NCBI GenBank assembly: GCA_947626605.1
Contig: CANQSV010000002.1
Span: 92,231 to 156,230, forward strand
Origin: an uncultured Clostridia bacterium
Lineage (GTDB): Bacteria > Bacillota > Clostridia > TANB77 > CAG-508
Reading direction: 5' to 3'
DNA length: 64,000 nucleotides
This document shows positions 6,135 to 48,424 of this stretch, one piece after another. Position 1 is the stretch's first letter. Each line of letters starts with the position of its first letter. The notes below the pieces were generated by a model, which was not told where the DNA came from, ran no database searches, and saw only the letters and a program-made list of their open reading frames with translations. The position numbers were made by a program, and so were the translations under genes.

Positions 6135-8282
6135 TTATATTCCTGTTTTAGGCAATTTATTCTTTTGAGGAGTTTCTTTATTATATACAACTGTTTTCCA
6201 TTTATCATGTTCTTCAATTTTTTCATCAAAATATGTTGCAGTTAAATATGTATTGTTTGTAAATTCATACCCACTTTCCAAATCTTTTAATACCTGACAA
6301 TAAATTTTAGGATTAATTTCTTCTTTGAATCCCGGATTAACTGTTCCAAATCTTAATTCATATTCTGTAATATACTCATTTTTTGATAATTTTATTTCAT
6401 TCATATTAAAATTATAATTATTCTTTGAATTTAATTTATCTTTATAAAGAACATATTTATTATTTAGATTTGTTTTATACCAAATTGAATATTCGACTTC
6501 ATCTTTCCATGTTCCTGTTGAAATCTCATTAATTCTAACAGCATCAGTTGGAAGTACATCTCTCCATGTAAAATTATCAACTGCAACATTTGATTTATTT
6601 TCTAAGTTATCAAACTCATACTCTATCATTTTTCCTGATTCAGTCTCTTTTGTTCCTGATTTTTCAATTTTTAGTTCAACTTCAGATGATTCATTTTCAA
6701 AAATAACTGTATATTTTTTCTGATTTTCATTTATAAATATTGTTTGAGGCTCAGTATTAAGATTATAGAATTTTGGACTTTCTATTTCATATATTTTGTA
6801 TTCTCCATATGGTAAATCTTTGGATAATATCAAGCCTTCTGAATTTGTAGTATATGTTCCTATTAGCTTTCCATTTGCATCCTCTATTTTATACTTTGCA
6901 CCTTCTAAAGGCTTTCCATCTTCTATGTTTAAAAACTTATTATATCCTTTTGATTTTTTTAATATTTCAATTTTTCCTTTTATCAAATCATTTTCTATAT
7001 TTATTTTTATATCTTTTGGTTCAATACCTACATCAACCGAAAACTCGTATGTTTTATCTGATAGAACATACCCTGTTGGAGCTGTATTTTCTATAGCTAA
7101 ATAATCTCCTGCTTTTTCTATATTTAGAGATATTTCTCCTTTTGAATTACTCTTTTCAGTTGTTAATATATATGTGTCTTCATTTAAAATATATTTACCA
7201 TTACTATCTTTTTGTTTACTATATATTTTAAAGTCTACTCCTTCTAATGGAACTTTTGTATTAGAATCTAATTTATGTATTTTAATTTTATTGTTTACTG
7301 TTGTAAAACCAGTTGTCTTTACTTTTGTTACCTGTTGGGTTTTATCCGTAAATATTACATAATTTTGCTTATTTCCTTTGTTACTATTGGCATACACTGC
7401 AGTTGGTAATTTTGCTGTAGCAGATTCTATTTTTATTTTGCCTTTTATTGTTTTAGGAGTTGAAATCTCACTTTTTTCAATAGAAACTTTAAATTCCTTA
7501 TTTGTAACTTTTGATTTTTCTTTGATATTATTATTTTTCATATCAAATATCTTAGCAGTATTCCATAATTCTGAAACATCTATTTTATAATAATCTAATT
7601 TTACATTTGATTCTACTTCATATTTTTTAGAATAATATGCTTTTCCATTTATTTTTTCTTCTATCCAATCGCTTTTTTCTTTTAAATCAATTGATAAATA
7701 ATCTTGTTTATATTCTTTTTTTATTGCTGAATTATATAAACTTTCTGCTGTGTTTAAAACAGCTTTTCCTCTTGATTTTATTTCTTCTAAAGTTTTTGGC
7801 GTATATCCTTTCAAAACCCTATCTCCCACTTGATATTTCTTTTTTGGACTTACCTTCTCAGAATAGCAATGCATTGCTGTTTGAACTGCTAGATAGTAAT
7901 CTTTTTCGTTTTTCAAGTTCCATGATGTATATTTCTTATTATTGAAAATATATAATATTGTGTATATACCATTATCATTGCACACATCTATAGTCGTATC
8001 ATAACTTCCTAGTTCGCCCACTCCATCCTTAGATGGTTCTACACAAATTGCTGGGACTTTCTTTCCAGTATCTTCATCTGAGTAGTATATATAGTATCCC
8101 ACTTTATAACTCCAGTCTGATATTGATTCTTTATAAAATTGCAATAAACAGTCTAGCATACCATTACTTTTTAATTTAATTTTCTCATTTTTTTCTAGTC
8201 CTGCAAAAGAACATATATTAATTTGAATGATATTAACTAATATCATTAATATTATTAGTATTTTTTTTAGTTTAACTTTCAT
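6135..8282 (-). CDS. Secreted adhesin with an N-terminal thioester-like domain and SpaA/Cna-B-type fold repeats; ends in LPKTGI with no membrane-spanning tail
   Basis: Signal peptide. ICVEP and VQTAMH resemble the Cys/Gln thioester-domain motifs. Two prealbumin-like repeats (PLEGVDFKIY.., PLEGAKYKIED..). C-terminus is ...NKLPKTGI followed by two stop codons. Confidence 0.7.
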   Translation of the reverse strand: MKVKLKKILIILMILVNIIQINICSFAGLEKNEKIKLKSNGMLDCLLQFYKESISDWSYKVGYYIYYSDEDTGKKVPAICVEPSKDGVGELGSYDTTIDVCNDNGIYTILYIFNNKKYTSWNLKNEKDYYLAVQTAMHCYSEKVSPKKKYQVGDRVLKGYTPKTLEEIKSRGKAVLNTAESLYNSAIKKEYKQDYLSIDLKEKSDWIEEKINGKAYYSKKYEVESNVKLDYYKIDVSELWNTAKIFDMKNNNIKEKSKVTNKEFKVSIEKSEISTPKTIKGKIKIESATAKLPTAVYANSNKGNKQNYVIFTDKTQQVTKVKTTGFTTVNNKIKIHKLDSNTKVPLEGVDFKIYSKQKDSNGKYILNEDTYILTTEKSNSKGEISLNIEKAGDYLAIENTAPTGYVLSDKTYEFSVDVGIEPKDIKINIENDLIKGKIEILKKSKGYNKFLNIEDGKPLEGAKYKIEDANGKLIGTYTTNSEGLILSKDLPYGEYKIYEIESPKFYNLNTEPQTIFINENQKKYTVIFENESSEVELKIEKSGTKETESGKMIEYEFDNLENKSNVAVDNFTWRDVLPTDAVRINEISTGTWKDEVEYSIWYKTNLNNKYVLYKDKLNSKNNYNFNMNEIKLSKNEYITEYELRFGTVNPGFKEEINPKIYCQVLKDLESGYEFTNNTYLTATYFDEKIEEHDKWKTVVYNKETPQKNKLPKTGI

Positions 8283-8356
8283 TTTTACATCTCCTATTTA
8301 TATTTTATACTGTTTTTTACTAACAATTATTGTTAGTATCCCTTTTCATTTGTTCT

Positions 8357-8971
8357 TTATATTTTTTCTTTTCCTTGGACACATAATCTGCTATTTGGTT
8401 TTCCAGATATGCATGTTAGTAAAGTAATTCTATTATCCTTAGTTTCTGACAAATATGACCAATCTTCATCTGAAATCTCTTTAATTATTTCGACTGAATA
8501 AGTTTTAGAATCGTATTTTGTTTTGTAATATATTTCACTTCCAACTTTTATATTTTTTAAATTTTTAAACTCATCACCCTTCTCACCAGAATTATGGCTA
8601 GCTAAACCCACATTTCCATTGCAAATGCTTGTATTAGTAAAATGTCCTATTCCTATATTTAAAATATCCAATTCTGTTCCTTCATATATATTTTTTTCGT
8701 TTATTTCAATATCTGGAATAGATAATGTACCAATAACTTTTGCTACAGATCTTTTTGTTTCTTTTGGTTTATTCGTATTATTGTTCTTTTGAGTATTATT
8801 ATTTTTCTTAGTATTAATATTATTTTGTATAAATGTATTTTCATTATTTTTTGTTTTTTCATTTTTATCTTTGCTATTAATATTTTCTATTAAATTACTT
8901 CCCTGAGAATTTTTAATTCCAGATATAATTTTTGTATATGAAACATTTTGAACAATAAGTATACTCGCCAA
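8357..8971 (-). CDS. Sortase (TLLTC active site); the listed start is a TTG inside the signal-anchor segment and the probable true ATG at 9066 is out of frame
   Basis: Catalytic motif ITLLTC plus a conserved His region (IGHFTNT). The upstream in-frame peptide ..KITLIIIIWVL has no canonical start. See finding. Confidence 0.75.
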   Translation of the reverse strand: MASILIVQNVSYTKIISGIKNSQGSNLIENINSKDKNEKTKNNENTFIQNNINTKKNNNTQKNNNTNKPKETKRSVAKVIGTLSIPDIEINEKNIYEGTELDILNIGIGHFTNTSICNGNVGLASHNSGEKGDEFKNLKNIKVGSEIYYKTKYDSKTYSVEIIKEISDEDWSYLSETKDNRITLLTCISGKPNSRLCVQGKEKI

Positions 8972-21401: not shown

Positions 21402-22406
21402 CTATAATTCTTTCATTTTTTTATTAATATACTTCATCACTGAAATTACTTTAGAATAATCCATTCTTTTAGGGCCTATTATTCCTATCGTTCCAAGTTT
21501 TTTATTTCCAATTTTATGATTAAAAGTAATAACACTAAAGTCTTTTAAGCCTTCATATTCATTTTCATCACCAATATAAACATTAATATCTTCAGCCATT
21601 CCTGTATTTAACATTTCCATCATTACAGCTTTTTCGTCTAAAATGTTTATAAAATTTTTAGCAATTTCTAAGCTTTTAAATTCTGGTAAATCAAAGGACT
21701 TATTGGCTCCTTCTAAATATAATTCTTCACCATTTCCTATTGCTTTGTTAAATTGTTCTATTACAGGTTTTATTACATTTAAACTTTGATTCATTTCTGA
21801 AAAAATATAATCTTCCATTGGCTTATCTATTTTTGTTAGTGGTTTTCCCTTCAATTTGCTATTGAATATCAAATTTAAAGTTTGTACTTGTGATTCCATT
21901 ATATCTTCATCAAATTTTATAATCGTTTCTTTTATTATTCCTGTTTCGGTTAATACTATTGCCATTAACATTCTATTGCCTAGCAAAACAAATTTTATTT
22001 CCTCAATAATTTGCTCTTCTGAACTTGGTCCTATACTAACTGTTGTGTAATGTGTTATCTCTGATAAAGTATTAGTAGCAATTTTAGTTAAATCTTCTAT
22101 TTGTGTTACTTTTGTTTCTAATTTTGACTGTATATATTTAATTTCGTCTAAACTTATATTGTCTTCTTTTAGCAATTCATCTACATAGAATCTATACCCT
22201 TTAGCAGAAGGTACTCTTCCAGCTGAAGTATGCGGTTTTTCTAAATATCCTAGATGTTCTAATTCTGACATTTCATTTCTAACTGTTGCACTACTAAAAT
22301 TAAATCCATATTTAGTTACTATTGTCCCTGAACTAACTGGCTCAGCTGTATTAATATATTCTTCAATAATTGCTTGTAATATCTGTTTTTTCCTTTCATC
22401 TAGCAT
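21402..22406 (-). CDS. hrcA: Heat-inducible transcription repressor HrcA
   Basis: Winged-helix N-terminus with ELEHLGYLEKPHTSAGRVP. It is the first gene of the dnaK operon. Confidence 0.93.
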   Translation of the reverse strand: MLDERKKQILQAIIEEYINTAEPVSSGTIVTKYGFNFSSATVRNEMSELEHLGYLEKPHTSAGRVPSAKGYRFYVDELLKEDNISLDEIKYIQSKLETKVTQIEDLTKIATNTLSEITHYTTVSIGPSSEEQIIEEIKFVLLGNRMLMAIVLTETGIIKETIIKFDEDIMESQVQTLNLIFNSKLKGKPLTKIDKPMEDYIFSEMNQSLNVIKPVIEQFNKAIGNGEELYLEGANKSFDLPEFKSLEIAKNFINILDEKAVMMEMLNTGMAEDINVYIGDENEYEGLKDFSVITFNHKIGNKKLGTIGIIGPKRMDYSKVISVMKYINKKMKEL

Positions 22407-22423
22407 ATTTTATCACTCCATTT

Positions 22424-22450
22424 TTAGCACTCTTAATGTTCGTCTGCTAA
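22424..22450 (-). promoter_or_regulatory. CIRCE operator (HrcA binding site) between the -10 and the hrcA RBS
   Basis: TTAGCACTC-N9-GTCTGCTAA, to compare with consensus TTAGCACTC-N9-GAGTGCTAA. One half-site is perfect and the other has 2 mismatches. Confidence 0.8.
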
Positions 22451-22475
22451 TTCTTTGTATATATTATACTCTTTT

Positions 22476-22502
22476 TTAGCAATTGTCAACCCAGATTGCT
22501 AA
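22476..22502 (-). promoter_or_regulatory. Second CIRCE-like inverted repeat overlapping the hrcA -35
   Basis: TTAGCAATT-N9-GATTGCTAA. The TTGACA -35 lies within the spacer. Confidence 0.5.
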
Positions 22503-22671
22503 TTTTTTTATAATTATTTTTTACATCACTATATATTATTTAAAAATAAGAATATTTTAATTCTTACTCCTATAAAAAAAATATTTTAATAAAGGGTTGT
22601 TTTTTTTATATGTTTGTGTTAAACTAATAGTTAGTCAATTTATTTACTTATTTTAGGAGGTGCAATTTATT

Positions 22672-22869
22672 ATGGCAAAATGTGCAATTTGTGGTAAGTC
22701 TGTAAGTTATGGTAACAAACTTAGCATTACTCGTTCACATATTAGTAAAAGATCAACTAGAACATGGAAGCCAAATTTAAGAAGTGTTAAAGCTGTTATA
22801 GATGGAGAATCAAAAAGAATTAAAGTATGTGCTAAATGTTTGCGTTCAGGAAAAGTTGTAAAAGCTTAA
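22672..22869 (+). CDS. rpmB: 50S ribosomal protein L28
   Basis: MAKCAICGKSVSYGNKLS..SH..TWKPNL. ATG at 22672 follows AGGAGG; the listed GTG at 22660 overlaps that RBS. Confidence 0.9.
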   Translation: MAKCAICGKSVSYGNKLSITRSHISKRSTRTWKPNLRSVKAVIDGESKRIKVCAKCLRSGKVVKA

Positions 22870-22888
22870 TCACATATTATATATAAAT

Positions 22889-22910
22889 AACCGGCAACTA
22901 GTTGCCGGTT
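22889..22910 (+). terminator. rpmB terminator hairpin
   Basis: Perfect palindrome aaccggcaac-ta-gttgccggtt. Confidence 0.7.
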
Positions 22911-23042
22911 CATTTATTATTTAGAAAGACATATGTACTGACACATACTCTATTCTTTTATACCAAATATTAATTTTACAAAACCCCTTAAAAATTTAGG
23001 TACTTTTTTCACAACTATCGTCAATTTGAACACCCCCTGATT

Positions 23043-23192
23043 TTAACAAAATAACCATATAAGCCCAACTAAAGCCATAACTATTCCAAAAAGAAATAAC
23101 CAACCTGTAATTGGAAGTAATAGTACTAATAAAACTCCTATACCCATTCCTACAAAACATACTCCTATTGTCTTTTTAAAAAGTCTAAACAT
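23043..23192 (-). CDS. Small (49 aa) two-TM-like membrane protein, below the ORF-track cutoff
   Basis: AGGAGG lies 9 nt upstream of the ATG. Translation: MFRLFKKTIGVCFVGMGIGVLLVLLLPITGWLFLFGIVMALVGLIWLFC. Confidence 0.5.
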   Translation of the reverse strand: MFRLFKKTIGVCFVGMGIGVLLVLLLPITGWLFLFGIVMALVGLIWLFC

Positions 23193-23296
23193 AATCTATT
23201 ACCTCCTCACTTTACTATATTATATTATTTTATGTAAAAAAGGTGACTGTTTTTTACTTGAATAAACATTAATAAGAATAATAAGGAGATTAAAAT

Positions 23297-23935
23297 ATGA
23301 ATGATAACAAAATACATGATTTTATGATAACTTTAAAATCGACCTATCCTGATGCAAAATGTAGTCTTGATTTTACTACACCTTTTGAATTATTAATTGC
23401 TGTAATTTTATCAGCTCAATGTACTGATGAACGTGTTAATAAAACAACTCCTAACATTTTCTCTATTTATTCTTCTCCAAAAGATTTTGCAAATATAGAC
23501 TTATCCGAATTAGAAGATTTAATTCATCCTTGCGGGTTTTATAGGAATAAAGCAAAGAACATTAAAGCTTGTTCAAGAATATTAGTTGAAAAGTACAATT
23601 CTGAAGTTCCTAATACAATGGAAGATTTAATTTCATTACCAGGTGTTGGTAGAAAAACTGCCAATGTTGTACTTCTTAATGCTTTCGGAATTGCTGAAGG
23701 TATTGCTATAGATACACATGCAAAAAGAATTTCTAATAGACTTGGTTTCTCTTCTGAAAGTGATCCTGAAAAAGTTGAACGCGATTTGCTAAAAATATTT
23801 CCAAAAGAATATTTAAAAGATATTAATCACTTATTTGTATATCATGGCAGAAATTTTTGTACTGCAAGAAATCCTAAATGTGCAGAATGCCCTTTGCAGG
23901 AATTTTGTAAAAGTTTTAAAGAAAAAACTTTCTAA
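23297..23935 (+). CDS. nth: Endonuclease III
   Basis: HhH-GPD motif LPGVGRKTANVVL. Fe-S cluster C-x6-C-x2-C-x5-C at the C-terminus. Confidence 0.93.
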   Translation: MNDNKIHDFMITLKSTYPDAKCSLDFTTPFELLIAVILSAQCTDERVNKTTPNIFSIYSSPKDFANIDLSELEDLIHPCGFYRNKAKNIKACSRILVEKYNSEVPNTMEDLISLPGVGRKTANVVLLNAFGIAEGIAIDTHAKRISNRLGFSSESDPEKVERDLLKIFPKEYLKDINHLFVYHGRNFCTARNPKCAECPLQEFCKSFKEKTF

Positions 23936-23990
23936 ACAACTGAATATTTTTTATAGCCTTTGTAATACTAACTTTAAGAGGTGATTTATT

Positions 23991-24116
23991 TTGACAAATA
24001 TTAATTGTTCAGCTAATTGCCAATTTCAAGAAGATGGTAAATGCTGTTTAGAAAATATCAATTTTCAAAATATTACACCTGATTCCTCTTGTGCATATTT
24101 CGAATCAAAAAAATAA
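23991..24116 (+). CDS. Small (41 aa) Cys-rich protein with a TTG start, below the ORF-track cutoff
   Basis: AGAGGTG RBS 7 nt upstream. Translation: MTNINCSANCQFQEDGKCCLENINFQNITPDSSCAYFESKK (5 Cys). Confidence 0.4.
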   Translation: MTNINCSANCQFQEDGKCCLENINFQNITPDSSCAYFESKK

Positions 24117-24135
24117 AAAAGCACAGCTAAGAAAT

Positions 24136-24183
24136 GTACAGAAAGTTCTCCTACTAGGAGAACTTTGGTACAATATAAAAAAA
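24136..24183 (-). repeat. 48-bp intergenic repeat, copy B (hairpin module + TACAATATAAAAAAA)
   Basis: gtacagaaagttctcctactaggagaactttggtacaatataaaaaaa. Compare 3351-3399. Confidence 0.75.
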
Positions 24184-24184
24184 C

Positions 24185-24203
24185 AGGCGAGTTAAGCTCA
24201 CCT
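24185..24203 (-). terminator. Terminator of the PP-loop/MurD-paralogue operon
   Basis: Stem aggcgag / ctcacct (one G-U pair in the minus-strand RNA), followed on the minus strand by T7. Confidence 0.65.
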
Positions 24204-24242
24204 ATATATAATCTTATCTCCAAAATGAACATATTATTTAAA

Positions 24243-25628
24243 CTATTGATTCTTTACTAATCTTTTAAATTTTTCTCCTCTTTCTTTGAAGTTTTTAAAA
24301 AATCCATAACTAGATGCTGCTGGAGATAATAAACAATTATTTCCTTTTTTAGTAACCTTTTTAGCTATATTAACTGCATCTTCCATTGTTTCTACTTTAT
24401 ATATTCTCATAGTGTTATTTGTAATTTTATCTGCTATATTATGTCCCGTGGTTGGAAGACAAATTAAATTTCCTATATCGCTATTATTTAAGAACTCTAT
24501 AAATTCTTGGTAATTTATTCCTCTATCCATTCCTCCAATTATCAATGTATTAATATTTTTTATCGCTTCTATAGAATTCATTGCTGATTCTGGCACTGTT
24601 GCTATAGAATCATTATAATAAGTTATTTCGTCAAATGTTCCCACTAATTCCATTCTATGTGGAAGTGGATTAAAAATATTTATCGTTTCTACAGTTTTTT
24701 TCAAATCTAATTTTAAAATCTCACTAACTGCCAATACAAACATAATATTATTAAGATTGTGATTTCCAAGTAATTTTCTTTCATCAGACGAATTATATAA
24801 TTTTACATTCTCATAATTTTTTATAATTCCATTTTCATATATAATTTTATTTTTATCGTAATATTCCCTGTTTTCAAAACTTATTGGATATATGTTATTA
24901 TAGCATTCTCCCATTTCTTTTTTATGCTTTTCAACTACATCTCTAACATATTTATTATCTGCATTGTACAAAAAATAATCTTCTTTTTTCTTATATTTAA
25001 AAATGTTTGCTTTCGCTTCTATATATTCATTAATTGATTTGTAATGATCTAAATGTTCTTCATATAAGTTAAGAAAAATTGAAATGTTTGGCGATTTTTT
25101 TACATATTCAAGTTGATGAGATGATATTTCTAATACCACTATCATATCTTTTTTTATTACATCTATATAATCAAAAATTGGAATACCAATATTACCAAGA
25201 AGTAATGTGTTTTTTCCTTGTTTGCTTATCATTTCATATATTAATGAACTCGTTGTACTTTTGCCTTTTGTTCCAGTTACACCAATTGTATAAACATCAA
25301 AAAATTCTAGTAATAATTCTAATTGAGATGTTATTTTTTGTTTAAATGCTGATATGTCTATGTCCTTAAGCGAAATTCCTGGTGATTTAATTATAATATC
25401 GTAATCGTCTAAATTATCTAAATACTCTTTACCACTAAGGTACTTAGCATTAACATCATCTGTAAGCATTTCATATTTTTCATTAAAATTCTTTTCTTTA
25501 TCTGCGATATATAATAATTGGTTCTTTAAGTATTTTCTTATTATTTTATATGTTGACTGTCCCTCTACTCCAAATCCTAAAATTAATATTTTTTTATCGG
25601 TTAAAAAATTAATTAAATTATCTATCAT
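24243..25628 (-). CDS. MurD-family Mur ligase paralogue (candidate UDP-MurNAc-L-Ala--L-Glu ligase, MurD2-like)
   Basis: Rossmann N-terminus ILILGFGVEG, P-loop GVTGTKGKSTT, motifs NLNN, PHRMELV, NDSIATVP, SPAASSYGFFKNFKERG. Its ATG overlaps the upstream gene stop by 11 nt. Confidence 0.7.
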   Translation of the reverse strand: MIDNLINFLTDKKILILGFGVEGQSTYKIIRKYLKNQLLYIADKEKNFNEKYEMLTDDVNAKYLSGKEYLDNLDDYDIIIKSPGISLKDIDISAFKQKITSQLELLLEFFDVYTIGVTGTKGKSTTSSLIYEMISKQGKNTLLLGNIGIPIFDYIDVIKKDMIVVLEISSHQLEYVKKSPNISIFLNLYEEHLDHYKSINEYIEAKANIFKYKKKEDYFLYNADNKYVRDVVEKHKKEMGECYNNIYPISFENREYYDKNKIIYENGIIKNYENVKLYNSSDERKLLGNHNLNNIMFVLAVSEILKLDLKKTVETINIFNPLPHRMELVGTFDEITYYNDSIATVPESAMNSIEAIKNINTLIIGGMDRGINYQEFIEFLNNSDIGNLICLPTTGHNIADKITNNTMRIYKVETMEDAVNIAKKVTKKGNNCLLSPAASSYGFFKNFKERGEKFKRLVKNQ

Positions 25629-27009
25629 ATATAGCTCCCTTTATTATTTTCTCTTGTTCTTCTGATAAATTATTTTCTTTATTATATCTTTTTAACAATT
25701 CTTCAGAAATATCTTTTACTTCATAATTTTTCTTATAGAATGCTAGTAGGTATGGTAATTTTTCTCCATTTTTTTCTATATTCTTTATAGTCCTACTGAT
25801 TGCACAATTCACTTCTTCATATGTTCCAACACATTCAAAAGGTTTATTTCTACCCTTACCTATTAGTTCTATGAAAGTTTCTTTCATACTTTCGTCATCA
25901 AACATATCTTTTCCAAATATATTGACTATTTTTTCTTTATATAAAAAAGTACTAAGCATTATGTAAGCAAATAAACATTTAGGACATTCACAGCACCATT
26001 TCCATACTTCTCCTTTGCTTCCGACATTACAACTCTTAAATACTTTATGATATTTTTCATATCTTGAGAATATCATTGCTATTTGTAATTCATTTAATGG
26101 TCTTAAAAAACTAAAATATTTTATAGGTAATTTCAAATATTTCTTTGAATATTCTTCAAAATCTTTTTCAAATTCATAGCTTTTTGAATACTGATGATTT
26201 ATCTTTTCTCCATCTACATTTGATTCATTTGCACTTGATTCATTTGATAACGCAATATATTCCCTACCTGTTAGGAAAGCAACAAAATAGGATATAAAAG
26301 CTAGTAAAGATGAAAAAGGTGTATGTCCATTTATATATCCTTTAGAGTTTAAATCTAGTAATTCTTTATCTATTACTCTTCGCACTTCAATAATATTATC
26401 ATCTTTTATCTCAGCAATTTTAGCACACTCTAAAGTTACTGGCTTTGGATTTATTATTAGTCCTAAATTGTCTTCTTTATTTTTTAGTAACTCTAACGTT
26501 ACAACAGAATCTTTTCCTCCTCCAATAGGAATTATATAATTCTTGAAGCTAAAATTGTTATTATTTACTTCCACATTAGAATAATCTTTTTCTCCTTCAC
26601 AAATTATATTCATAAATTCATTTATGTTTGTTTTTATATTGTTTGTGAAAAACAATTCTCCTAACCCATAAAAATATAGTTTTTTAAACCAGGCAATTTG
26701 TTCACTATTTATTCGACCACATTTTATTATTACATTTGGAGAACATACGCATTTCCAATAGCTTATTAGCTCAATTAACCCTATATGGAAAACTATATTA
26801 TTTATATATTCTTTATTATTATCTATTTTATTTACAATTAATCCTTTTTTTAGAATTTTTATTTTTGGCATAAAAACTTTTAAATTTGGTATTTCAAATT
26901 TATATTCAATATTTATACTTTCACTGTCTTCAGAAATTTTATAACTATCATATATAAACTCTTTATGCTTATCCCTTAGCTTGAAAAATTTTATGTTGTT
27001 ATCTACCAT
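25618..27009 (-). CDS. PP-loop (adenine-nucleotide alpha-hydrolase-like) ATP-utilising protein with a C-terminal Cys cluster; candidate MurL-type epimerase
   Basis: PP-loop-like PIGGGKDSVV. Cys cluster C-x10-CCECPKC. Translationally coupled to the MurD paralogue. ATG at 27009 follows GGAGGG; the listed GTG at 27021 lies inside the RBS. Confidence 0.45.
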   Translation of the reverse strand: MVDNNIKFFKLRDKHKEFIYDSYKISEDSESINIEYKFEIPNLKVFMPKIKILKKGLIVNKIDNNKEYINNIVFHIGLIELISYWKCVCSPNVIIKCGRINSEQIAWFKKLYFYGLGELFFTNNIKTNINEFMNIICEGEKDYSNVEVNNNNFSFKNYIIPIGGGKDSVVTLELLKNKEDNLGLIINPKPVTLECAKIAEIKDDNIIEVRRVIDKELLDLNSKGYINGHTPFSSLLAFISYFVAFLTGREYIALSNESSANESNVDGEKINHQYSKSYEFEKDFEEYSKKYLKLPIKYFSFLRPLNELQIAMIFSRYEKYHKVFKSCNVGSKGEVWKWCCECPKCLFAYIMLSTFLYKEKIVNIFGKDMFDDESMKETFIELIGKGRNKPFECVGTYEEVNCAISRTIKNIEKNGEKLPYLLAFYKKNYEVKDISEELLKRYNKENNLSEEQEKIIKGAIYDR

Positions 27010-27206
27010 AAATCCCTCCACTATATAAATATATTATCTAAGTTATATATTATTTTATAATATTTGTAAAGTATTAATTAAATTCATTAAAATTGGTATA
27101 GAAAAACTGTTTTTTGCAGATTATATATATAGTTAATGTTTACCTATAAGTTTCTTCTTATCTCTACCTATGAGTGCTATATTTACTAATTAAAGGAGGG
27201 ACAAAT

Positions 27207-27530
27207 ATGGCTTTAGACTATATAATTATTGGCGAAAGATTGAGAAAAGCAAGATTAGCAAAAGGATTAACTCAAGAAAAACTAGCAGAACAACTTGATT
27301 TATCCGTTGCCTTTCTAAGTAGAGTCGAACGTGGTAATGCTCATATTAATCTAACAAGACTTAGTGAAGTATGTTCCATCCTTGGATTATCTGAAGGTGA
27401 AATTCTTAATGGATCTTCTTCTAATGCCTCTGATTATATGCAAAGAGATTTTAGTTCTTTATTAAAGAAATGTTCACCTGAAAAACAAAAATTAATTTAT
27501 AATATAGCAAAAGTAATTGCTGAAAGTTAA
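27207..27530 (+). CDS. XRE-family helix-turn-helix transcriptional regulator
   Basis: HTH_3 signature LRKARLAKGLTQEKLAEQLDLSVAFLSRVERG. AAAGGAGGG RBS before the ATG at 27207. Confidence 0.85.
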   Translation: MALDYIIIGERLRKARLAKGLTQEKLAEQLDLSVAFLSRVERGNAHINLTRLSEVCSILGLSEGEILNGSSSNASDYMQRDFSSLLKKCSPEKQKLIYNIAKVIAES

Positions 27531-27550
27531 AAAAGCAAACCTAAGATTGT

Positions 27551-27565
27551 CTACAATATAAAAAA
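27551..27565 (-). repeat. Terminator-associated motif copy 4
   Basis: ctacaatataaaaaa lies next to the hairpin at 27566-27587. Confidence 0.6.
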
Positions 27566-27587
27566 GAAAGAAATTAATACTTCTTTC
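27566..27587. terminator. Bidirectional terminator between the XRE gene and the P-loop-like gene
   Basis: Stem gaaagaa / ttctttc with A6 and T7 flanks. Confidence 0.7.
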
Positions 27588-27604
27588 TTTTTTTATTATA
27601 TATC

Positions 27605-28339
27605 TTATTTATAATTTTCATCAACTTCTACAGAATTTTCCTTTTCTCCTGTTGAAACTTCATTATGAATATTTATAATATCTACCACTTGACTTTCATA
27701 CTCATTATTAATCATTTCATATTTTGCTAACTCATCTTCTAATCCATCTTGCACCTCTTTAAACTTTAAATAAGCTTTTACCAAATTATTTTCGTTTATT
27801 CTTACAGCATTTGGATTATTCATTTTTTGTATTTTCTTTAAACACTCCTGATATGTAACTTTATAATTCATTATAAAAACGGTCTTTTCAGCTTCTTTGG
27901 TAGCTCTGTATATTGCTTTTCTAAATTTCATATCTAAAAAAGGAGCATCAATAACAACTTTCTCATCACTTTTTTCTAATATTGCTTGTTGTACATTTTT
28001 AATATAATCTTCTCTTTCTGTTTTTATAAAAGAATATATTTCTTTTTGCTTAAATAAATTTGTTAAAAGATTAGTTCTTCCAGATTTAGGAAGTCCCATT
28101 GAAATTATAACAGCATTTTCTGGATATTCTCCTGCATTAGTAACTTTCTTTTTTGCTGTTGGTATTGTATCAACCTTTATGGAATCCACAAAAGCTTGTT
28201 TTTTATTATCTTTTCTTTCTACTGGTGTTGGCTCAATTTCTATTTGTTTTTTGGAGTTAGTTACTCCAAATTCTTCTGGATTTATATAAAACTGATCTTT
28301 CCATCCAGCATTTCCAATTCTATGATTTTTTCTTCCCAT
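27605..28339 (-). CDS. Hypothetical protein with a degenerate Walker-A-like motif (kinase/zeta-like P-loop fold?)
   Basis: GLPKSGRT sits where GxxxxGK[ST] is expected. 244 aa, downstream of mltG on the same strand. Confidence 0.4.
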   Translation of the reverse strand: MGRKNHRIGNAGWKDQFYINPEEFGVTNSKKQIEIEPTPVERKDNKKQAFVDSIKVDTIPTAKKKVTNAGEYPENAVIISMGLPKSGRTNLLTNLFKQKEIYSFIKTEREDYIKNVQQAILEKSDEKVVIDAPFLDMKFRKAIYRATKEAEKTVFIMNYKVTYQECLKKIQKMNNPNAVRINENNLVKAYLKFKEVQDGLEDELAKYEMINNEYESQVVDIINIHNEVSTGEKENSVEVDENYK

Positions 28340-28433: not shown

Positions 28434-29513
28434 TTAATATTCATACCATAGCCCTTGAGTTTTTAATGCAGATACCATTTCTTCATGTTCAGCATTTGTT
28501 TTTGTAAAATATACTTTTCCATTTTTGTCTGCAACAAAATAAAAATTGTCTGTTTGCTCTGGCTTTAAAACCGCTTCTATTGATGCTTTGCTTACCGATG
28601 CAATTGGTCCTACTGGAAGTTTTCCTTCCATATTAGGTCCTCTAGTATTATATGCATTGTAAGTATTAAGTTCTTGATATGTTAAATCTCTTTCTCCCAT
28701 ATCAATTTTCCATGCATAATAAGTAGTAACATCACTTCCTAAAGCCATATTTTCCTTTAATCTGTTATAAAATACACTTGCTATTCCTGTTCTATCTTCA
28801 TCATGTACTCCTTCTAATTCTACCATAGAAGCCATTGTTAGTATTTGATGAACTGTAAGATTACTATTTTCAATATCATTTTTATATTCATTTAAAACTT
28901 TTTCCATTTGATCTAGCATAATTGATAAAATATCTTCAACTGGTACATCTGCATTTTCTATTATATATGTATCTGGAAAAAGATATCCTTCTATAGCATA
29001 GTAGATATTTTCATTTTTTATTTCGTCTGTTATAAACCAATATTTATCTATGATTTTATTTATATATTCTTCATTATCTAATAAATTGTATACATCTTCT
29101 GCTTTATTATTTGTAGTTTCTTCAATTTTATTTGCAAGCCATCTAACATTTTTGCCTTCGATGTATGTTAATTTTATTTCATCACCTTTGTATACTTCTC
29201 CTTTTTCAAGAATTCTTGTAATTTCATCAAAGCTCATACTAGGACTAAAACAGTATTTACCAGCTATTAAATTATTTTTATCATTCAATTTTATATATAT
29301 TCTAAAAGCCATAGTATTTTTTATTATTCCTTTTTCTGCTAATAAATTACCTACAAAATTTAAGTTTGCTCCTTCACCTATTTCTACTATAATTTGTTCA
29401 GAATTATTTTTATTTCCTGATATAGAATTATTATACCATATAATTGTTCCTGCTGCTAAAAATACTATTAAAGCTAAAATTATTATAAGAATTATCATTA
29501 GTTTTTTCTTCAT
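28434..29513 (-). CDS. mltG: Endolytic murein transglycosylase (YceG family)
   Basis: N-terminal TM segment, YLFPDTY, ASMVELEG, typical length. Confidence 0.88.
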   Translation of the reverse strand: MKKKLMIILIIILALIVFLAAGTIIWYNNSISGNKNNSEQIIVEIGEGANLNFVGNLLAEKGIIKNTMAFRIYIKLNDKNNLIAGKYCFSPSMSFDEITRILEKGEVYKGDEIKLTYIEGKNVRWLANKIEETTNNKAEDVYNLLDNEEYINKIIDKYWFITDEIKNENIYYAIEGYLFPDTYIIENADVPVEDILSIMLDQMEKVLNEYKNDIENSNLTVHQILTMASMVELEGVHDEDRTGIASVFYNRLKENMALGSDVTTYYAWKIDMGERDLTYQELNTYNAYNTRGPNMEGKLPVGPIASVSKASIEAVLKPEQTDNFYFVADKNGKVYFTKTNAEHEEMVSALKTQGLWYEY

Positions 29514-29673
29514 ATTTTCTCTCCCTTATTAATACTATTTTGAATATATCATAAATAAAAAATTATTGGAATAGGAAATTGAAAATTTTTGACTTATTTT
29601 GTCTAAAGCCCTTTAAAATTAAGAACTTTTATAGTATAATATATATGTATGAAATTTAAGGAGGAATTCTAAT

Positions 29674-30093
29674 ATGTGGAAAATTTGGGTTATATTCTCT
29701 GGACTTTTCGTAATACTTGAAATAATGACTATTGGTTTCCTTGTATTTTGGTTTGCAGTTGGCTCTATCTTTGCAATGATTACTAGCTTTTTTACAAATA
29801 GTATAGTTATACAAACTACTGTATTTCTTCTATCATCAACAGCACTTATTATTTTAACTAGACCATTAGTAGAAAAACTTACTAAAAAAGATACTGTTGT
29901 AAAAACAAATGCATATTCCATTATTGGTAAAAAAGCTATTGTAACACAAGATATTGATACCTTACATGGATCTGGTCAAATTAAAGTTAACGGTGAAACT
30001 TGGTCTGCTATAAGTGAAGAAGGAAATAAATATGAAAAAGGTTCAGAAGTAGAAATAATTTCAATTGACGGCGTAAAAGCTGTTATAAAATAG
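29674..30093 (+). CDS. NfeD-family membrane protein
   Basis: Three TM segments plus a C-terminal OB-like domain (GQIKVNGETWSA). Lies upstream of an SPFH gene. Confidence 0.8.
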   Translation: MWKIWVIFSGLFVILEIMTIGFLVFWFAVGSIFAMITSFFTNSIVIQTTVFLLSSTALIILTRPLVEKLTKKDTVVKTNAYSIIGKKAIVTQDIDTLHGSGQIKVNGETWSAISEEGNKYEKGSEVEIISIDGVKAVIK

Positions 30094-30130
30094 TTCATAA
30101 ATATAAAAAAATATTTTAGGAGGTTTTATT

Positions 30131-31078
30131 ATGACTTTTTTAATAGTTTTATTCATAATTATACTTATTATTGCCGCTTATTCAATTAAAGTTGTTAAGC
30201 AATCTGAAGTATATATTATAGAAAGACTTGGAAAATTTAGTAAAATAGCTGAAGCTGGTCTTACAATTATAATTCCATTTTTAGATCAGGTTCGTTCAGT
30301 TGTAAGTTTAAAGCAACAAACAATGGATATTCCACCACAAGGAGTTATTACAAAGGATAACGTTACAATTACTATAGATACTGTTGTGTTCTATAAAATT
30401 ACAGATCCTGCAAAAGCAGTTTATGAAATTCAATCTTTAAAGAAAGGTATTGAATACTTAGCAATAACTACTATCCGTGATATTGTCGGTAAGATGGATT
30501 TGGATCAAACATTTAGTTCAAGAGATTCTATTAATGATGAGTTAAGATCAAAATTAGATGATGCTACAGATCAATGGGGATGTAAAGTTGATAGAGTCGA
30601 AATTAAAGATATTACTCCACCAGCTGATATTCGTGATGCAATGGAAAAACAAATGAATGCAGAAAGAAATAAGAGAGCTCTTATTCTTCAAGCTGAAGGA
30701 GAGAAACAATCAGCAATTACAATTGCTGAAGGTAGAAAAGAAGCCGCTATTCTTCAAGCTGAAGCTGATAAAGAAACTAAAATCAGAATTGCAGCCGGTG
30801 AAGCAGCCGCAATTAAGCATGTTGCTGAAGCTAAGGCTAAAGAAATCGAAATGGTTTATTCTGCAATTAGTAACGCAAATCCAGATGACAAATTAGTTCA
30901 ATTAAAATCTTTAGAAGCTCTTGAAAAAGTTGCAAATGGTGAAGCTAACAAAGTATTTATTCCTTTTGAAGCAACAGCTGCTCTAGGAAGTTTAGGTGCA
31001 ATCAAAGATGTAATGAAAGATGATACTAGAAAAAGAAAAATGCAAAAAGAAATAAAAAAAGATGACAATAATGAATAA
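30131..31078 (+). CDS. SPFH/band-7 (stomatin-like) protein
   Basis: N-terminal TM segment, SPFH core (YIIERLGKF.., VDRVEIKDITPP), Ala/Glu-rich coiled-coil. Confidence 0.88.
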   Translation: MTFLIVLFIIILIIAAYSIKVVKQSEVYIIERLGKFSKIAEAGLTIIIPFLDQVRSVVSLKQQTMDIPPQGVITKDNVTITIDTVVFYKITDPAKAVYEIQSLKKGIEYLAITTIRDIVGKMDLDQTFSSRDSINDELRSKLDDATDQWGCKVDRVEIKDITPPADIRDAMEKQMNAERNKRALILQAEGEKQSAITIAEGRKEAAILQAEADKETKIRIAAGEAAAIKHVAEAKAKEIEMVYSAISNANPDDKLVQLKSLEALEKVANGEANKVFIPFEATAALGSLGAIKDVMKDDTRKRKMQKEIKKDDNNE

Positions 31079-33571: not shown

Positions 33572-34978
33572 TTATTCTAATCCGTTTACAAGTTCTTTAA
33601 ATTTGTTTCCTCTCTCCTCAAAGTTTTTAAACATATCAAAGCTTGCACTTGCTGGTGAAAATAATACAATTTGACCAGGCTTTGCGATATTCTTTGCTAG
33701 TTTAACGCATTGCTCTAAAGTTTTACATTTATAAATATCTACTGTTTTATTTCTTATTTTTGATTCATTTTCTATTGCTTCTATAATCTTATCCGCTGTC
33801 TGTCCTAAAAGTATTACCCCTTTTGTTTTATTTAAAATTGGTCTTCCTATTGGTGTATAGTCTAAATTCTTGTCATATCCTCCTGCTATTAATATTATCT
33901 CCTCTTGAAAAGCATTTAATCCTGCAATTGTTCTTACTGGAGATGTACCTATTGAATCATTATACCATCTAACACCATTTAATCTTCTTACTAATTCTAA
34001 TCTATGAGGAACTCCAGGAAAATTCTTTACTGTTTCTACTGCAGATTCTATATCTACAAAGCTTCTAGTTGCTAATAATGCAGCACATATATTTTCATAA
34101 TTATGTTCCCCTTTAAGCATTGTTGATTTAGTATTTAATATATGTCTTCTTATTTTGTCTTCACATATTTTTATTATACCTTCATCTACAATGAATCCAT
34201 TATCTAATTTATTTTTTCTACTAAAAAATTCAACTTTTCCTTTTGCTTCTAATCCACATTCACGGGTAATTTCATTATCATAATTTAATATTAAAATATC
34301 GTTTTCATTTTGGTATTTATATATATTCTTTTTAGCATCTATGTATTCTTCATATGAACTATGAATATTTAAATGATTTGGAGTTATATTAGTTATGATA
34401 GCAATATTAGGACTAACACCCATTCCCATTAATTGAAAACTACTTAATTCCAAAACCACTATATCTTCAGGTCTCATTTCTTCTATTCTTGTAAATAATG
34501 GGATTCCTATATTTCCGCCTATATAACAATTATATCCTTTTTGTTTTAATATTTCGTATATAAGTGATGTAGTTGTTGTTTTTCCATCACTTCCTGTTAC
34601 TCCTATTATTGTTCCTGGACATAATTTCATAAACATTTCAACTTCGGTTGTTATAATAGCTCCTCTTTTTTCTTCCTCAACCAATTCTCTTGTTGTTGGC
34701 AAACAGCTTGGAGATCTAAATATGATATCAAATCCTGATAAATTATTTAAATTACCTGGACCAAATGCTTTATCTATATTACAAGTTGATAATATTTGTA
34801 GTATTTCTTCTGGCATATTTTCTACTGGTCTATTATCAAATACAGTAATAATCGCACCTAAATCATATAAGAATTTTATTAAAGGAACATTGCTTACTCC
34901 TAAACCTATTATTGCTACTTTTCTATTATAAATATATGATTTAAACTCCTCTACTTTTTTGTTTACAAATTCTTCCAC
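33572..34978 (-). CDS. murD: UDP-N-acetylmuramoyl-L-alanine--glutamate ligase (MurD family)
   Basis: Motifs AIIGLGVSN, GVTGSDGKTTTT, ELSSFQL, NITPNHL, GEHNYEN, PHRLELV, SPASASFDMFKNFEERG. It carries NDSIGTSP instead of NDSKATN. Confidence 0.85.
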   Translation of the reverse strand: MEEFVNKKVEEFKSYIYNRKVAIIGLGVSNVPLIKFLYDLGAIITVFDNRPVENMPEEILQILSTCNIDKAFGPGNLNNLSGFDIIFRSPSCLPTTRELVEEEKRGAIITTEVEMFMKLCPGTIIGVTGSDGKTTTTSLIYEILKQKGYNCYIGGNIGIPLFTRIEEMRPEDIVVLELSSFQLMGMGVSPNIAIITNITPNHLNIHSSYEEYIDAKKNIYKYQNENDILILNYDNEITRECGLEAKGKVEFFSRKNKLDNGFIVDEGIIKICEDKIRRHILNTKSTMLKGEHNYENICAALLATRSFVDIESAVETVKNFPGVPHRLELVRRLNGVRWYNDSIGTSPVRTIAGLNAFQEEIILIAGGYDKNLDYTPIGRPILNKTKGVILLGQTADKIIEAIENESKIRNKTVDIYKCKTLEQCVKLAKNIAKPGQIVLFSPASASFDMFKNFEERGNKFKELVNGLE

Positions 34979-35014
34979 AGTTTTCCCCCCATTATGAAAA
35001 ACTCTTTTACTAAT

Positions 35015-35695
35015 TTAAACTATGTATTTTAAAATTCTATTGGCTCCTTCTTCTACAGTTTTACAATCAGTTGTATCTATTACAATAGTTTTATCATATG
35101 TTTTATAAAAACCTGCTTTCTCTTGTAAATCATCTCTTTTCATTATATGCTGTTTTAATTCTTTTTTGCTTACTCTACCTTCATATTGTATATTTTTTCT
35201 TTCTACTCTTGCATCTATATCTGCAGTTATAAAGAAATGATATTTTGTATTAGGGTATATTTTTAGTATATCTCTTCCTGAAAAAATTACATTACTTTGC
35301 TTTCTAAATTCTTCAATTAATTTTTCTCCAAATAAATATAAACCAGAATTTTTAGCCATACCAGCTACTTCTGAAACAGCTATTGAAGATTCTTCTGATT
35401 GCAAAGTATCTTGTTCCACTTTATTACCATTTATATAAATCTCTGTTTCTCTATTTTCTAGCCTTATTTTAATTTTTAATTTATCCATTACTTCTTTAAT
35501 ATCAATCTGATTGGCATTTTTTAATAACTCTTCTTTATTTATACCAGACTTCATTATAGCATATACAATTGCCCTATATAAATTTCCACCATTTACTAAA
35601 ATTGAATTTGGTATTTTATTCAACAATTGTTTACATATAGAAGTTTTTCCAGCTCCTACTAAACCTTCTATTCCTATAACAATATTGTTATTCAT
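35015..35695 (-). CDS. Cytidylate kinase-like nucleoside monophosphate kinase
   Basis: P-loop GIEGLVGAGKTS and cmk-like blocks (GGNLYRA.., SGRDI.., FITADIDARVERK). Confidence 0.65.
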   Translation of the reverse strand: MNNNIVIGIEGLVGAGKTSICKQLLNKIPNSILVNGGNLYRAIVYAIMKSGINKEELLKNANQIDIKEVMDKLKIKIRLENRETEIYINGNKVEQDTLQSEESSIAVSEVAGMAKNSGLYLFGEKLIEEFRKQSNVIFSGRDILKIYPNTKYHFFITADIDARVERKNIQYEGRVSKKELKQHIMKRDDLQEKAGFYKTYDKTIVIDTTDCKTVEEGANRILKYIV

Positions 35696-36092: not shown

Positions 36093-36166
36093 AGGGGAAT
36101 AGTACATCGGTAGTATAAGAGTCTCCAAAACTCCTGAGCTAGGTTCGACTCCTAGTTCCCCTGCCA
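36093..36166 (+). tRNA. trnW: tRNA-Trp (anticodon CCA)
   Basis: Manual cloverleaf: acceptor aggggaa/ttcccct, anticodon loop cuCCAaa, T-loop ttcgact, discriminator G, encoded CCA. 74 nt. Confidence 0.9.
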
Positions 36167-46449: not shown

Positions 46450-46525
46450 TGGAGCTTCCAGCCGGAATCGAACCGGCGACCCCAGCCTTACCATGGCTGT
46501 GCTCTACCTACTGAGCTATAGAAGC
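46450..46525 (-). tRNA. trnT: tRNA-Thr (anticodon GGU)
   Basis: Manual cloverleaf: acceptor gcttcta/tggaagc, anticodon loop auGGUaa, T-loop ttcgatt, encoded CCA. 76 nt. Confidence 0.9.
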
Positions 46526-48071: not shown

Positions 48072-48424
48072 TGGTGGAGATGAGGAGAGTCGAACTCCTG
48101 TCCAACAACCTTTCCATATAAACCTCTCCGAGTGCAGTTTGTTATTAACATTCCCTCAACAATGAGTTAACAAACAAACTCATTGTTTCAGTAGCTTATA
48201 AATACCCCTTATTTCCTAAGCAAGAAATAACTTCGTTTCCTACTAATTCGTCGCCTTATCTTTAAGCGTAGGCACAAAAAGTAAGACGTCGCTGCAATTA
48301 GGCAGCGTATGCTAATTCTCTATTATCAGCGTTTATATTTATTTTTCAGGGTTTTAAGTGGCCACCTGAAACCACTACTCGCTATTTATACTTCTGGATT
48401 GCTGTCAAAACCAAATACATCCCC
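48072..48424 (-). ncRNA. ssrA: tmRNA (SsrA)
   Basis: 5' end GGGGAUGUAUUUGGUUUUGACAGC. 3' tRNA-like end GGACAGGAGUUCGACUCUCCUCAUCUCCACCA. Tag frame GCU GAU AAU AGA GAA UUA GCA UAC GCU GCC UAA encodes ADNRELAYAA. Upstream promoter TTGAAT-17-TATAAT. Confidence 0.93.

Follow-up and report, generated by a model that had tools for sequence, protein, structure and literature searches.

An overlapping murL-murD2 gene pair in an uncultured gut Clostridia bacterium, a probable member of the MurD2/MurL route to D-glutamate

The stretch of DNA analysed here, called the window throughout, comprises 64,000 nucleotides of contig CANQSV010000002.1 from an uncultured Clostridia bacterium (assembly GCA_947626605.1). 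Its minus strand carries two overlapping genes, murL (25618-27009) and murD2 (24243-25628), encoding a homologue of the cell-wall precursor epimerase MurL and a ligase of the MurD family, and together these are probably a Clostridia member of the MurD2/MurL route to D-glutamate (D-Glu), as judged from sequence comparison. The minus strand of 24100-27900 was read for the anatomy of the operon, which has the following parts:

25618-27009, minus strand: murL, an open reading frame (ORF) of 463 residues counted from the ATG at 27009, a MurL homologue by NCBIfam, Pfam and comparison with Xanthomonas
24243-25628, minus strand: murD2, a ligase ORF of 461 residues with Mur_ligase_M, Mur_ligase_C and MurD-like_N domains
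25618-25628, minus strand: overlap of 11 nucleotides between the murL stop and the murD2 start, ATGATAGATAA, as read in the sequence
24183-24205, minus strand: terminator-like hairpin and T-run, 38 nucleotides past the murD2 stop, a consensus match only
27010-27206, no strand assigned: divergent intergenic region of 197 bp, AT-rich, presumed from position only to hold the promoters of murL-murD2 and of the neighbouring xre gene

The 3' end of murL reads ...GCT ATA TAT GAT AGA TAA, and the ATG of the ligase lies inside that string, as stated in a preliminary description of this DNA; the 11-nucleotide overlap indicates translational coupling of murL and murD2. An alternative murL start, a GTG at 27021, would give a protein of 467 residues. 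The hairpin at 24183-24205 is the sole terminator-like site between 23900 and 27700 and closes the operon. At the other end, promoter-like matches in the region 27010-27206 are not commoner than in shuffled sequence, and no convincing operator repeat was found in these 197 bp, where the inverted repeats amount to AT-rich noise. A scan against Rfam returned no riboswitch or leader near the operon, its matches being a tmRNA and two tRNAs elsewhere.

The sole, specific NCBIfam match of the 463-residue protein is to NF041275 (MurL_Xanthmoales), the model for 'UDP-N-acetyl-alpha-D-muramoyl-L-alanyl-L-glutamate epimerase' (E=3.5e-68), and spans residues 17-406 against positions 9-392 of 447, or 85% of the profile. 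An identical protein (P0001) carries precomputed Pfam matches to PF26299 (MurL_N) and PF26298 (MurL_epimerase_C); the local Pfam scan gave no match, these MurL families being newer than the copy of Pfam used, and a sequence search of the PDB with the protein returned nothing, no MurL structure being among the chains searched. A RefSeq-annotated murL was found by tblastn of plasmid records in Xanthomonas sacchari (NZ_CP010410.1), a congener of Xanthomonas oryzae, the species whose MurL and MurD2 were characterised (PMC8788868, PMC5808125). In X. sacchari murL is followed, with an overlap of 20 nucleotides, by a gene annotated 'murD', the same order as in the window, and the two MurL proteins are 32% identical over 330 residues (E=2e-55), with the motifs GGGKDS, NGHxP, NHQxSK, SCN, CxxCxxC and KPFECVG in common. 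Scoring of conservation across 38 diverse homologues gives as family-invariant motifs the GGKD of GGGKDS, NGHxP, NHQxSK, SCN, WCxxCxKC and KPFxCxG, all of which are present in Xanthomonas MurL. These matches and motifs identify the protein as a MurL homologue. The statement in the preliminary description that it resembles none of the usual Mur enzymes thus holds for MurA to MurF and fails only in that the protein is MurL, and since it is a MurL homologue the alternative offered there, an undescribed system of ligase and adenylating enzyme, is excluded. Three elements of the protein bear on its predicted chemistry:

26506-26523, minus strand: motif GGGKDS (residues 163-168), resembling a pyrophosphate-binding (PP) loop, predicted from conservation and alignment with QueC to bind the pyrophosphate of adenosine triphosphate (ATP)
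25975-26031, minus strand: four-cysteine motif C327-x11-C339-x2-C342-x2-C345, predicted from conservation to be a QueC-type metal site, with zinc as the presumed metal
25831-25833, minus strand: C393 in KPFECVG, candidate acid/base for exchange of the Calpha proton, a role suggested by its invariance

G164, G165, K166 and D167 do not vary among the 38 homologues, and S168 is kept in at least 90% of them; C327, C339, C342 and C345 are invariant or nearly so, C340 is not conserved, and C393 is invariant in all 38. Gene neighbourhoods were counted in the best 80 of at least 593 MurL-encoding stretches in species-representative genomes, and all 80 of these loci have the GGGKDS motif, the four-cysteine motif (with a spacer of 9 to 23 residues) and the KPFECVG motif; in X. 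sacchari MurL the cysteine motif is C-x15-CxxCxxC, and KPFECVG is kept. The PIGGGKDS string noted in the preliminary description corresponds to residues 161-168, and the cysteine cluster described there is real, although its first spacer is 11 residues (C327-x11-C339-C340-x-C342-x2-C345) and not 10.

The scan behind these counts took one genome per species, with an alignment of diverse MurL homologues as the query. MurL relatives are encoded in at least 593 of at least 600 matched stretches, and the family comprises 2,647 cluster representatives at 50% identity (E<=1e-3). Tallied from record titles, the best 80 loci belong to the following groups:

Clostridia (including Candidatus Merdicola, Candidatus Scatovivens, Lachnospiraceae and Oscillospiraceae): 37
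Bacilli, 'Tenericutes' or Erysipelotrichaceae-type metagenome-assembled genomes (MAGs): 24
Bacteroidota: 15
unspecified Firmicutes: 2
labelled Saccharibacteria: 2

These loci include gut and rumen Clostridia, Bacilli-type MAGs and Bacteroidales, and the closest species-representative genomes among the matches listed are uncultured gut Clostridia, with a MurL identity of at most 64%. Co-occurrence of the two genes across genomes, a check proposed in the preliminary description, is widespread: in 75 of the 80 loci murL is followed directly, on its own strand, by an ORF of the MurD family. Of the five exceptions, two have murL at the end of the contig, and the others (L036, L074 and L084) have no MurD-type ligase within 6 kb of murL. 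Of 71 other loci, 54 have an estimated ligase start that overlaps the murL stop, and in 64 the distance is at most 30 nucleotides. Fusion of the two proteins is also common: about a quarter of the best cluster representatives (39 of 150) have at least 780 residues, long enough for a MurL-ligase fusion, and all nine of the long representatives scanned consist of MurL fused to Mur ligase domains, in either order.

Several variants of this arrangement were seen. One fusion (P0141) has an extra C-terminal Peptidase_M20 domain, another MurL (P0130) is interrupted by an endonuclease-like DUF559 insert, and a further representative (P0225) has a weak match to DUF6395. The MurL ORF of locus L074 bears an N-terminal extension of about 80 residues, and the MurL-adjacent ligase ORF of L023 (3122-5329) has 736 residues, about 280 of which form a C-terminal extension. 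Three Pseudonocardia plasmids encode 'hypothetical proteins' that resemble MurL (27-30% identity). On one of them, pPaSha1 of Pseudonocardia alni, the murL-like gene (L099, 5764-7164) is close to a helix-turn-helix (HTH) gene and a WD40-repeat gene and has no adjacent Mur ligase, and for that reason the MurL fold may have other uses.

The ligase encoded by murD2 (copy B) and a second ligase encoded elsewhere in the window (copy A) score 350.6 and 382.5 bits against TIGR01087 (murD), where the cut-off is 211.95, and the two full-length MurD-family ligases reported in the preliminary description at 24243-25628 and 33572-34978 are thus both genuine. By Pfam copy B is a three-domain Mur ligase in which the catalytic K123, H192 and K206 are kept. 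Equivalents of Escherichia coli MurD K115, N138, E157, H183 and K198 are present in copy B and in all 70 MurL-adjacent ligases aligned. Near the glutamate site four positions distinguish X. oryzae MurD2 from E. coli MurD (E197/D182, R358/K348, P433/A414 and F435/L416), and the double mutant E197D/R358K turns MurD2 wholly into a D-Glu ligase (PMC8788868). The corresponding residues were read from an alignment of the MurD proteins of E. coli and Streptococcus agalactiae, copies A and B, X. sacchari MurD2 and 71 locus ligases, of which 70 are murL-adjacent and one is a second copy in locus L060. At the positions of E. coli D182, K319, K348, A414 and L416 stand, in that order:

copy B: E191, I342, R369, S439, Y441
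X. sacchari MurD2: E, I, R, P, F
copy A: N201, I343, K370, A445, F447

E191 and R369 of copy B align with E197 and R358, the determinants of L-glutamate (L-Glu) use in X. oryzae MurD2, and the position of E. coli K348 is R in all 70 MurL-adjacent ligases. At E. coli T321, K348, S415 and F422 copy B has T, R, S and F, with Y at L416. In neighbour-joining (NJ) trees, which are crude, 99 of 100 bootstraps unite copy B with the MurL-adjacent ligases. The position of K319 was rejected as a marker of MurD2. A Lys to Thr mutation there lets the MurD of E. coli or Streptococcus mutans accept L-Glu, and the residue is I342 in copy B (24603-24605), I343 in copy A (33950-33952) and I or L in all MurL-adjacent ligases and X. 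sacchari MurD2, but it is I, A, V or S across the clade of copy A too. Homology and the determinant residues suggest that copy B is a MurD2-type ligase with a preference for L-Glu. With the MurL family matches, the E/R determinants in the ligase and a conserved neighbour pair, the Firmicute version of the MurD2/MurL route envisaged in the preliminary description has found support.

Copy A lies outside the operon:

33572-34978, minus strand: second, housekeeping-type MurD ligase of 468 residues, given as context and not part of the operon (TIGR01087, 382.5 bits)

All of its 120 closest homologues have N and K at the determinant positions, and together with them it forms a clade apart from the MurL-adjacent ligases in 100 of 100 NJ bootstraps; X. 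sacchari MurD2 never joins it. The immediate upstream neighbour of copy A is cmk, and the same holds for its homologues on the six contigs of relatives that were examined. Within the 64-kb window there is no murI homologue, no Aminotran_4 (D-amino-acid transaminase) gene and no other dcw gene, a negative that tells little about the genome as a whole. A canonical-type MurD and a MurL-ligase pair coexist in locus L060 too. In the favoured explanation copy A would be the ordinary D-Glu ligase of the lineage and, because this separate MurD of ordinary type is present at 33572-34978, murL-murD2 is probably a route without need for free D-Glu that acts alongside the canonical one and does not replace it. 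In a contig of a sister species (L095, 1-3600) the cmk and copy A pair (33572-35695) is missing at the syntenic place, where a two-component system and an ABC transporter are found; in more distant Clostridia (L088-L093) cmk-murD is a conserved and often overlapping pair.

The fold of MurL was approached through an AlphaFold2 model built from 51 homologues, which has a mean predicted local distance difference test (pLDDT) score of 91.1 and a predicted template modelling (pTM) score of 0.91. A Foldseek search of the PDB gave only three matches at probability 1.0, namely two chains of QatC from the QatBC complex (9y02_B and 9y01_B; E=2e-4, about 420 aligned columns, template modelling (TM) score 0.41-0.44) and QueC (2pg3; E=1.5e-3, TM score 0.62 normalised to QueC). 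QueC is recognised by its SGGxDS phosphate loop together with the zinc motif C(x)8CxxCxxC, and the enzyme activates a carboxylate with ATP (PMC13329287). In the MurL family the corresponding motifs, GGGKDS and C(x)9-23CxxCxxC, follow one another in that order too. When the MurL alignment was compared by hhalign with the single QueC sequence of E. coli, both motifs fell in register, GGGKDS aligning with SGGQDS, in an alignment that is not significant (probability 3.5%, E=0.012), and the 463-residue protein has no match to Pfam QueC (PF06508) at E<=0.1. Because the confident model matches both QueC and QatC, MurL is described here as a QueC-like PP-loop enzyme by predicted fold, with a four-cysteine motif, and the PP-loop idea of the preliminary description is borne out by it; because no significant match to a QueC sequence profile was obtained, MurL is not filed in the QueC family. 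Two reviews by the Dairi group, of 2018 and 2021, which were all that the literature searches brought up on MurL and MurD2, describe MurL as having no known domains and an unclear mechanism (PMC5808125, PMC8788868), and a survey of the QueC family from 2026 (PMC13329287) does not mention it. The reaction of MurL, which in X. oryzae depends on Mg2+, converts ATP to adenosine monophosphate (AMP) and runs only from L to D (PMC5808125), and an adenylation step is supported by this published release of AMP together with the predicted fold.

On the other side of the intergenic region lies one further gene that was considered as a partner of the pair:

27207-27530, plus strand: XRE-family HTH gene encoding 107 residues from an ATG (HTH_3, E=4e-13)

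Gene calls on identical contigs place its start at the ATG 27207, giving 107 residues and not the 118 from a GTG reported before; it is a real ORF, and the distance from this ATG to that of murL is 197 bp, as the preliminary description had it. An XRE-like ORF occurs near murL in only 2 of the 80 other genomes, and xre is kept only in the sister species (L095), at 94% identity. It is a lineage-specific neighbour and not a conserved part of the module, and the idea that XRE is, as a general feature, a dedicated regulator of the ligase and PP-loop pair was rejected.

The remainder of the window is ordinary chromosome, with asnB, a sortase and pilin pair, rny, hrcA-grpE-dnaK-dnaJ, mltG, efp, uvrA, greA, aspS and a tmRNA gene. 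Between mltG and xre lies a gene for a conserved protein of 244 residues (27605-28339, minus strand) that has no Pfam or PADLOC match and whose sister-species orthologue has only a faint, kinase-like match to AAA_33. A SpaA-type (prealbumin-fold) surface protein with an adjoining sortase (6135-8971, minus strand) and a putative adhesin (pAdhesive_15; 56382-57761, minus strand) are surface-attachment genes of a Gram-positive gut bacterium. The Rfam matches are the tmRNA gene at 48072-48424 (minus strand, 168.5 bits) and tRNA genes at 46453-46525 (minus strand) and 36093-36163 (plus strand). When positions 22300-27960 are compared with the sister contig, the flanks (hrcA-dnaK, mltG and AI-2E) are 96-98% identical in nucleotides, and a tract of about 5.5 kb that takes in the 3' end of the 244-residue gene, xre, murL, murD2, nth and rpmB is only 78-91% identical. 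At the protein level identities are 99.4% for DnaK, 87.4% for MurL, 83.4% for MurD2 and 87.7% for L28. This pattern suggests that the diverged region is a tract of recombination. A further stretch of divergence, smaller in extent, covers nfeD (about 29450-30650).

In the proposed route MurD2 would join L-Glu to the cell-wall precursor, as its homology and determinant residues suggest, and MurL would then flip the terminal L-Glu to D-Glu, by homology to the X. oryzae enzyme. Within the MurL step, GGGKDS would bind ATP and the alpha-carboxylate of the terminal glutamate would be adenylated, with the four-cysteine motif probably holding a structural metal of the QueC kind. The Calpha proton, made more acidic by adenylation, would be taken off and returned from the opposite face, for which the invariant C393, H229, H272 and K276 are candidates, and the adenylate would finally be hydrolysed. 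The D-Glu product would pass into the ordinary MurE/MurF pathway. The overlapping frames, and the fusions in other lineages, may provide equal amounts of the two enzymes and possibly physical contact between them, which would prevent build-up of the L-Glu intermediate. A more specific picture can be offered as a speculation, in which MurL/MurD2 would be a conditional bypass independent of free D-Glu beside the canonical MurD, used under D-Glu limitation, at a given growth stage or under XRE control, and not a replacement of MurI/MurD; more broadly, MurL would be an unrecognised branch of the QueC fold, common in gut Firmicutes and Bacteroidota and not confined to a few genera, in which adenylation drives irreversible epimerisation.

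A number of observations weigh against assignment to the MurD2/MurL route. The score against NF041275 is 230 bits, far under the equivalog cut-off of 700 bits, which is tuned to Xanthomonadales, and the identity to Xanthomonas MurL is low. At the first determinant position, that of E. coli D182, only 52 of the 70 MurL-adjacent ligases have E and 18 have D, so that the E/R rule has exceptions. In the crude NJ tree only 68 of 200 bootstraps place X. sacchari MurD2 with the MurL-adjacent clade, and orthology of the ligase to Xanthomonas MurD2 therefore rests on the determinant residues and gene order, not on the tree. The link to QueC is structural only, given the absence of a Pfam QueC match and the 3.5% of hhalign. 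Finally, the same genome encodes a second MurD-family ligase, unlike the published MurD2/MurL organisms, which are reported to be without any D-Glu-forming gene. This last point, since it leaves no evident need for the pair in the standard D-Glu step, is also an opening for an unlikely explanation in which the pair edits the stem peptide otherwise, the ligase adding a residue other than L-Glu, or MurL adenylating for amidation or another transfer, while the MurD at 33572 performs the D-Glu step. Adenylation indeed serves enzymes of the QueC fold in making amides or nitriles and in conjugating proteins, and 32% identity to the annotated Xanthomonas MurL leaves room for another activity. However, copy B has T, R, S, F and Y at MurD positions together with the E/R pair specific to MurD2, every motif conserved in the family is common to Xanthomonas MurL, and no amidotransferase or ammonia-donor gene adjoins the pair.

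Two other explanations were given still less weight. The pair could be a redundant or decaying duplicate gained by recombination and of no important role, the genome having its own MurD, as might be argued from the tract of about 5.5 kb holding xre, murL, murD2, nth and rpmB, which is about 86% identical to the sister contig between flanks of 96-98%. This is improbable: both ORFs are intact with all catalytic and family-invariant residues kept, the pair persists in the sister species as well as in hundreds of others, and the divergence is not specific to murL-murD2 because the tract also includes rpmB and nth. It is hardly credible, in turn, that the MurL-like gene encodes a protein of QueC or QatC type, serving 7-deazaguanine metabolism or anti-phage defence, which stands beside a MurD paralogue by chance. 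The top structural matches are indeed QatC (9y02_B and 9y01_B) and QueC (2pg3), and the adjoining XRE protein matches generic HTH models in PADLOC; nevertheless PADLOC has no match for MurL or the ligase, on which ground a defence-system identity for them was rejected, the protein does not match Pfam QueC, and no QatA, QatB, QatD, queD or queE is nearby, while the MurL sequence-family matches, the conserved adjacency of the ligase and the fusions point to cell-wall precursor chemistry. Membership of the MurD2/MurL route is thus kept as the probable reading.

The murL-murD2 system itself is already described (Feng et al. 2017, as summarised in PMC8788868 and PMC5808125), and Pfam and NCBIfam already have models for it. 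What is added here is a much wider distribution, a fold of MurL that is predicted to resemble QueC, and the presence of a second MurD alongside the pair. MurD2/MurL has been proposed as a target for narrow-spectrum antibiotics on the view that the pathway occurs only in Xanthomonas, Stenotrophomonas and a handful of further genera (PMC8788868). The window locus and its relatives argue against so restricted a distribution, and inhibitors of the pathway would probably strike many commensals, since MurL relatives are this widespread (at least 593 stretches; 2,647 clusters). The QueC-like PP-loop fold, the four-cysteine motif and the short list of invariant residues suggest concrete mutants for the study of the MurL mechanism, and since the pair is accompanied by a canonical-type MurD, one may ask under which conditions either route operates.

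The closest known system is the MurL (XOO_1319) and MurD2 (XOO_1320) pair of X. oryzae, for which orthologues have been confirmed in Micromonospora and Salinispora (Feng et al. 2017, according to PMC8788868 and PMC5808125). As in Xanthomonas, murL precedes murD2 with overlapping frames (seen in X. sacchari), MurL is of the same sequence family with all conserved motifs, and the ligase has the E/R determinants of L-Glu use and I at the position of E. coli K319. The window pair differs in its low identity (32% for MurL and 24% for the ligase), in having S439/Y441 where MurD2 has P433/F435, in its host, an uncultured gut Clostridia lineage outside the published distribution, and in the second, canonical-type MurD of its genome.

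With QueC (PF06508) MurL shares the predicted fold, the [SG]GGxDS loop and the C-x(n)-CxxCxxC motif in the same order and register, GGGKDS standing for SGGxDS and C(x)11CxxCxxC, with zinc predicted, for C(x)8CxxCxxC; carboxylate adenylation giving AMP is a further likeness, supported for MurL by the published AMP release and the fold. Unlike QueC, MurL has an extra N-terminal domain of about 150 residues and a C-terminal helical extension, its substrate is a UDP-muramyl dipeptide and not a deazapurine, and the outcome is epimerisation and not an amide or nitrile. QatC of the QatABCD system and the QueC-like enzyme of the type IV cyclic oligonucleotide-based antiphage signalling system (CBASS) resemble MurL in adding domains to a QueC core and may be likened to it in acting on a peptide or protein terminus. 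QatC is the best structural match, nearly full length, but with 13% identity, no Qat partners in the window, no PADLOC match and a different biological role. MurI, in contrast, racemises free glutamate reversibly and without ATP, whereas MurL epimerises after ligation in an ATP-dependent and one-way reaction, and the folds of the two enzymes are unrelated.

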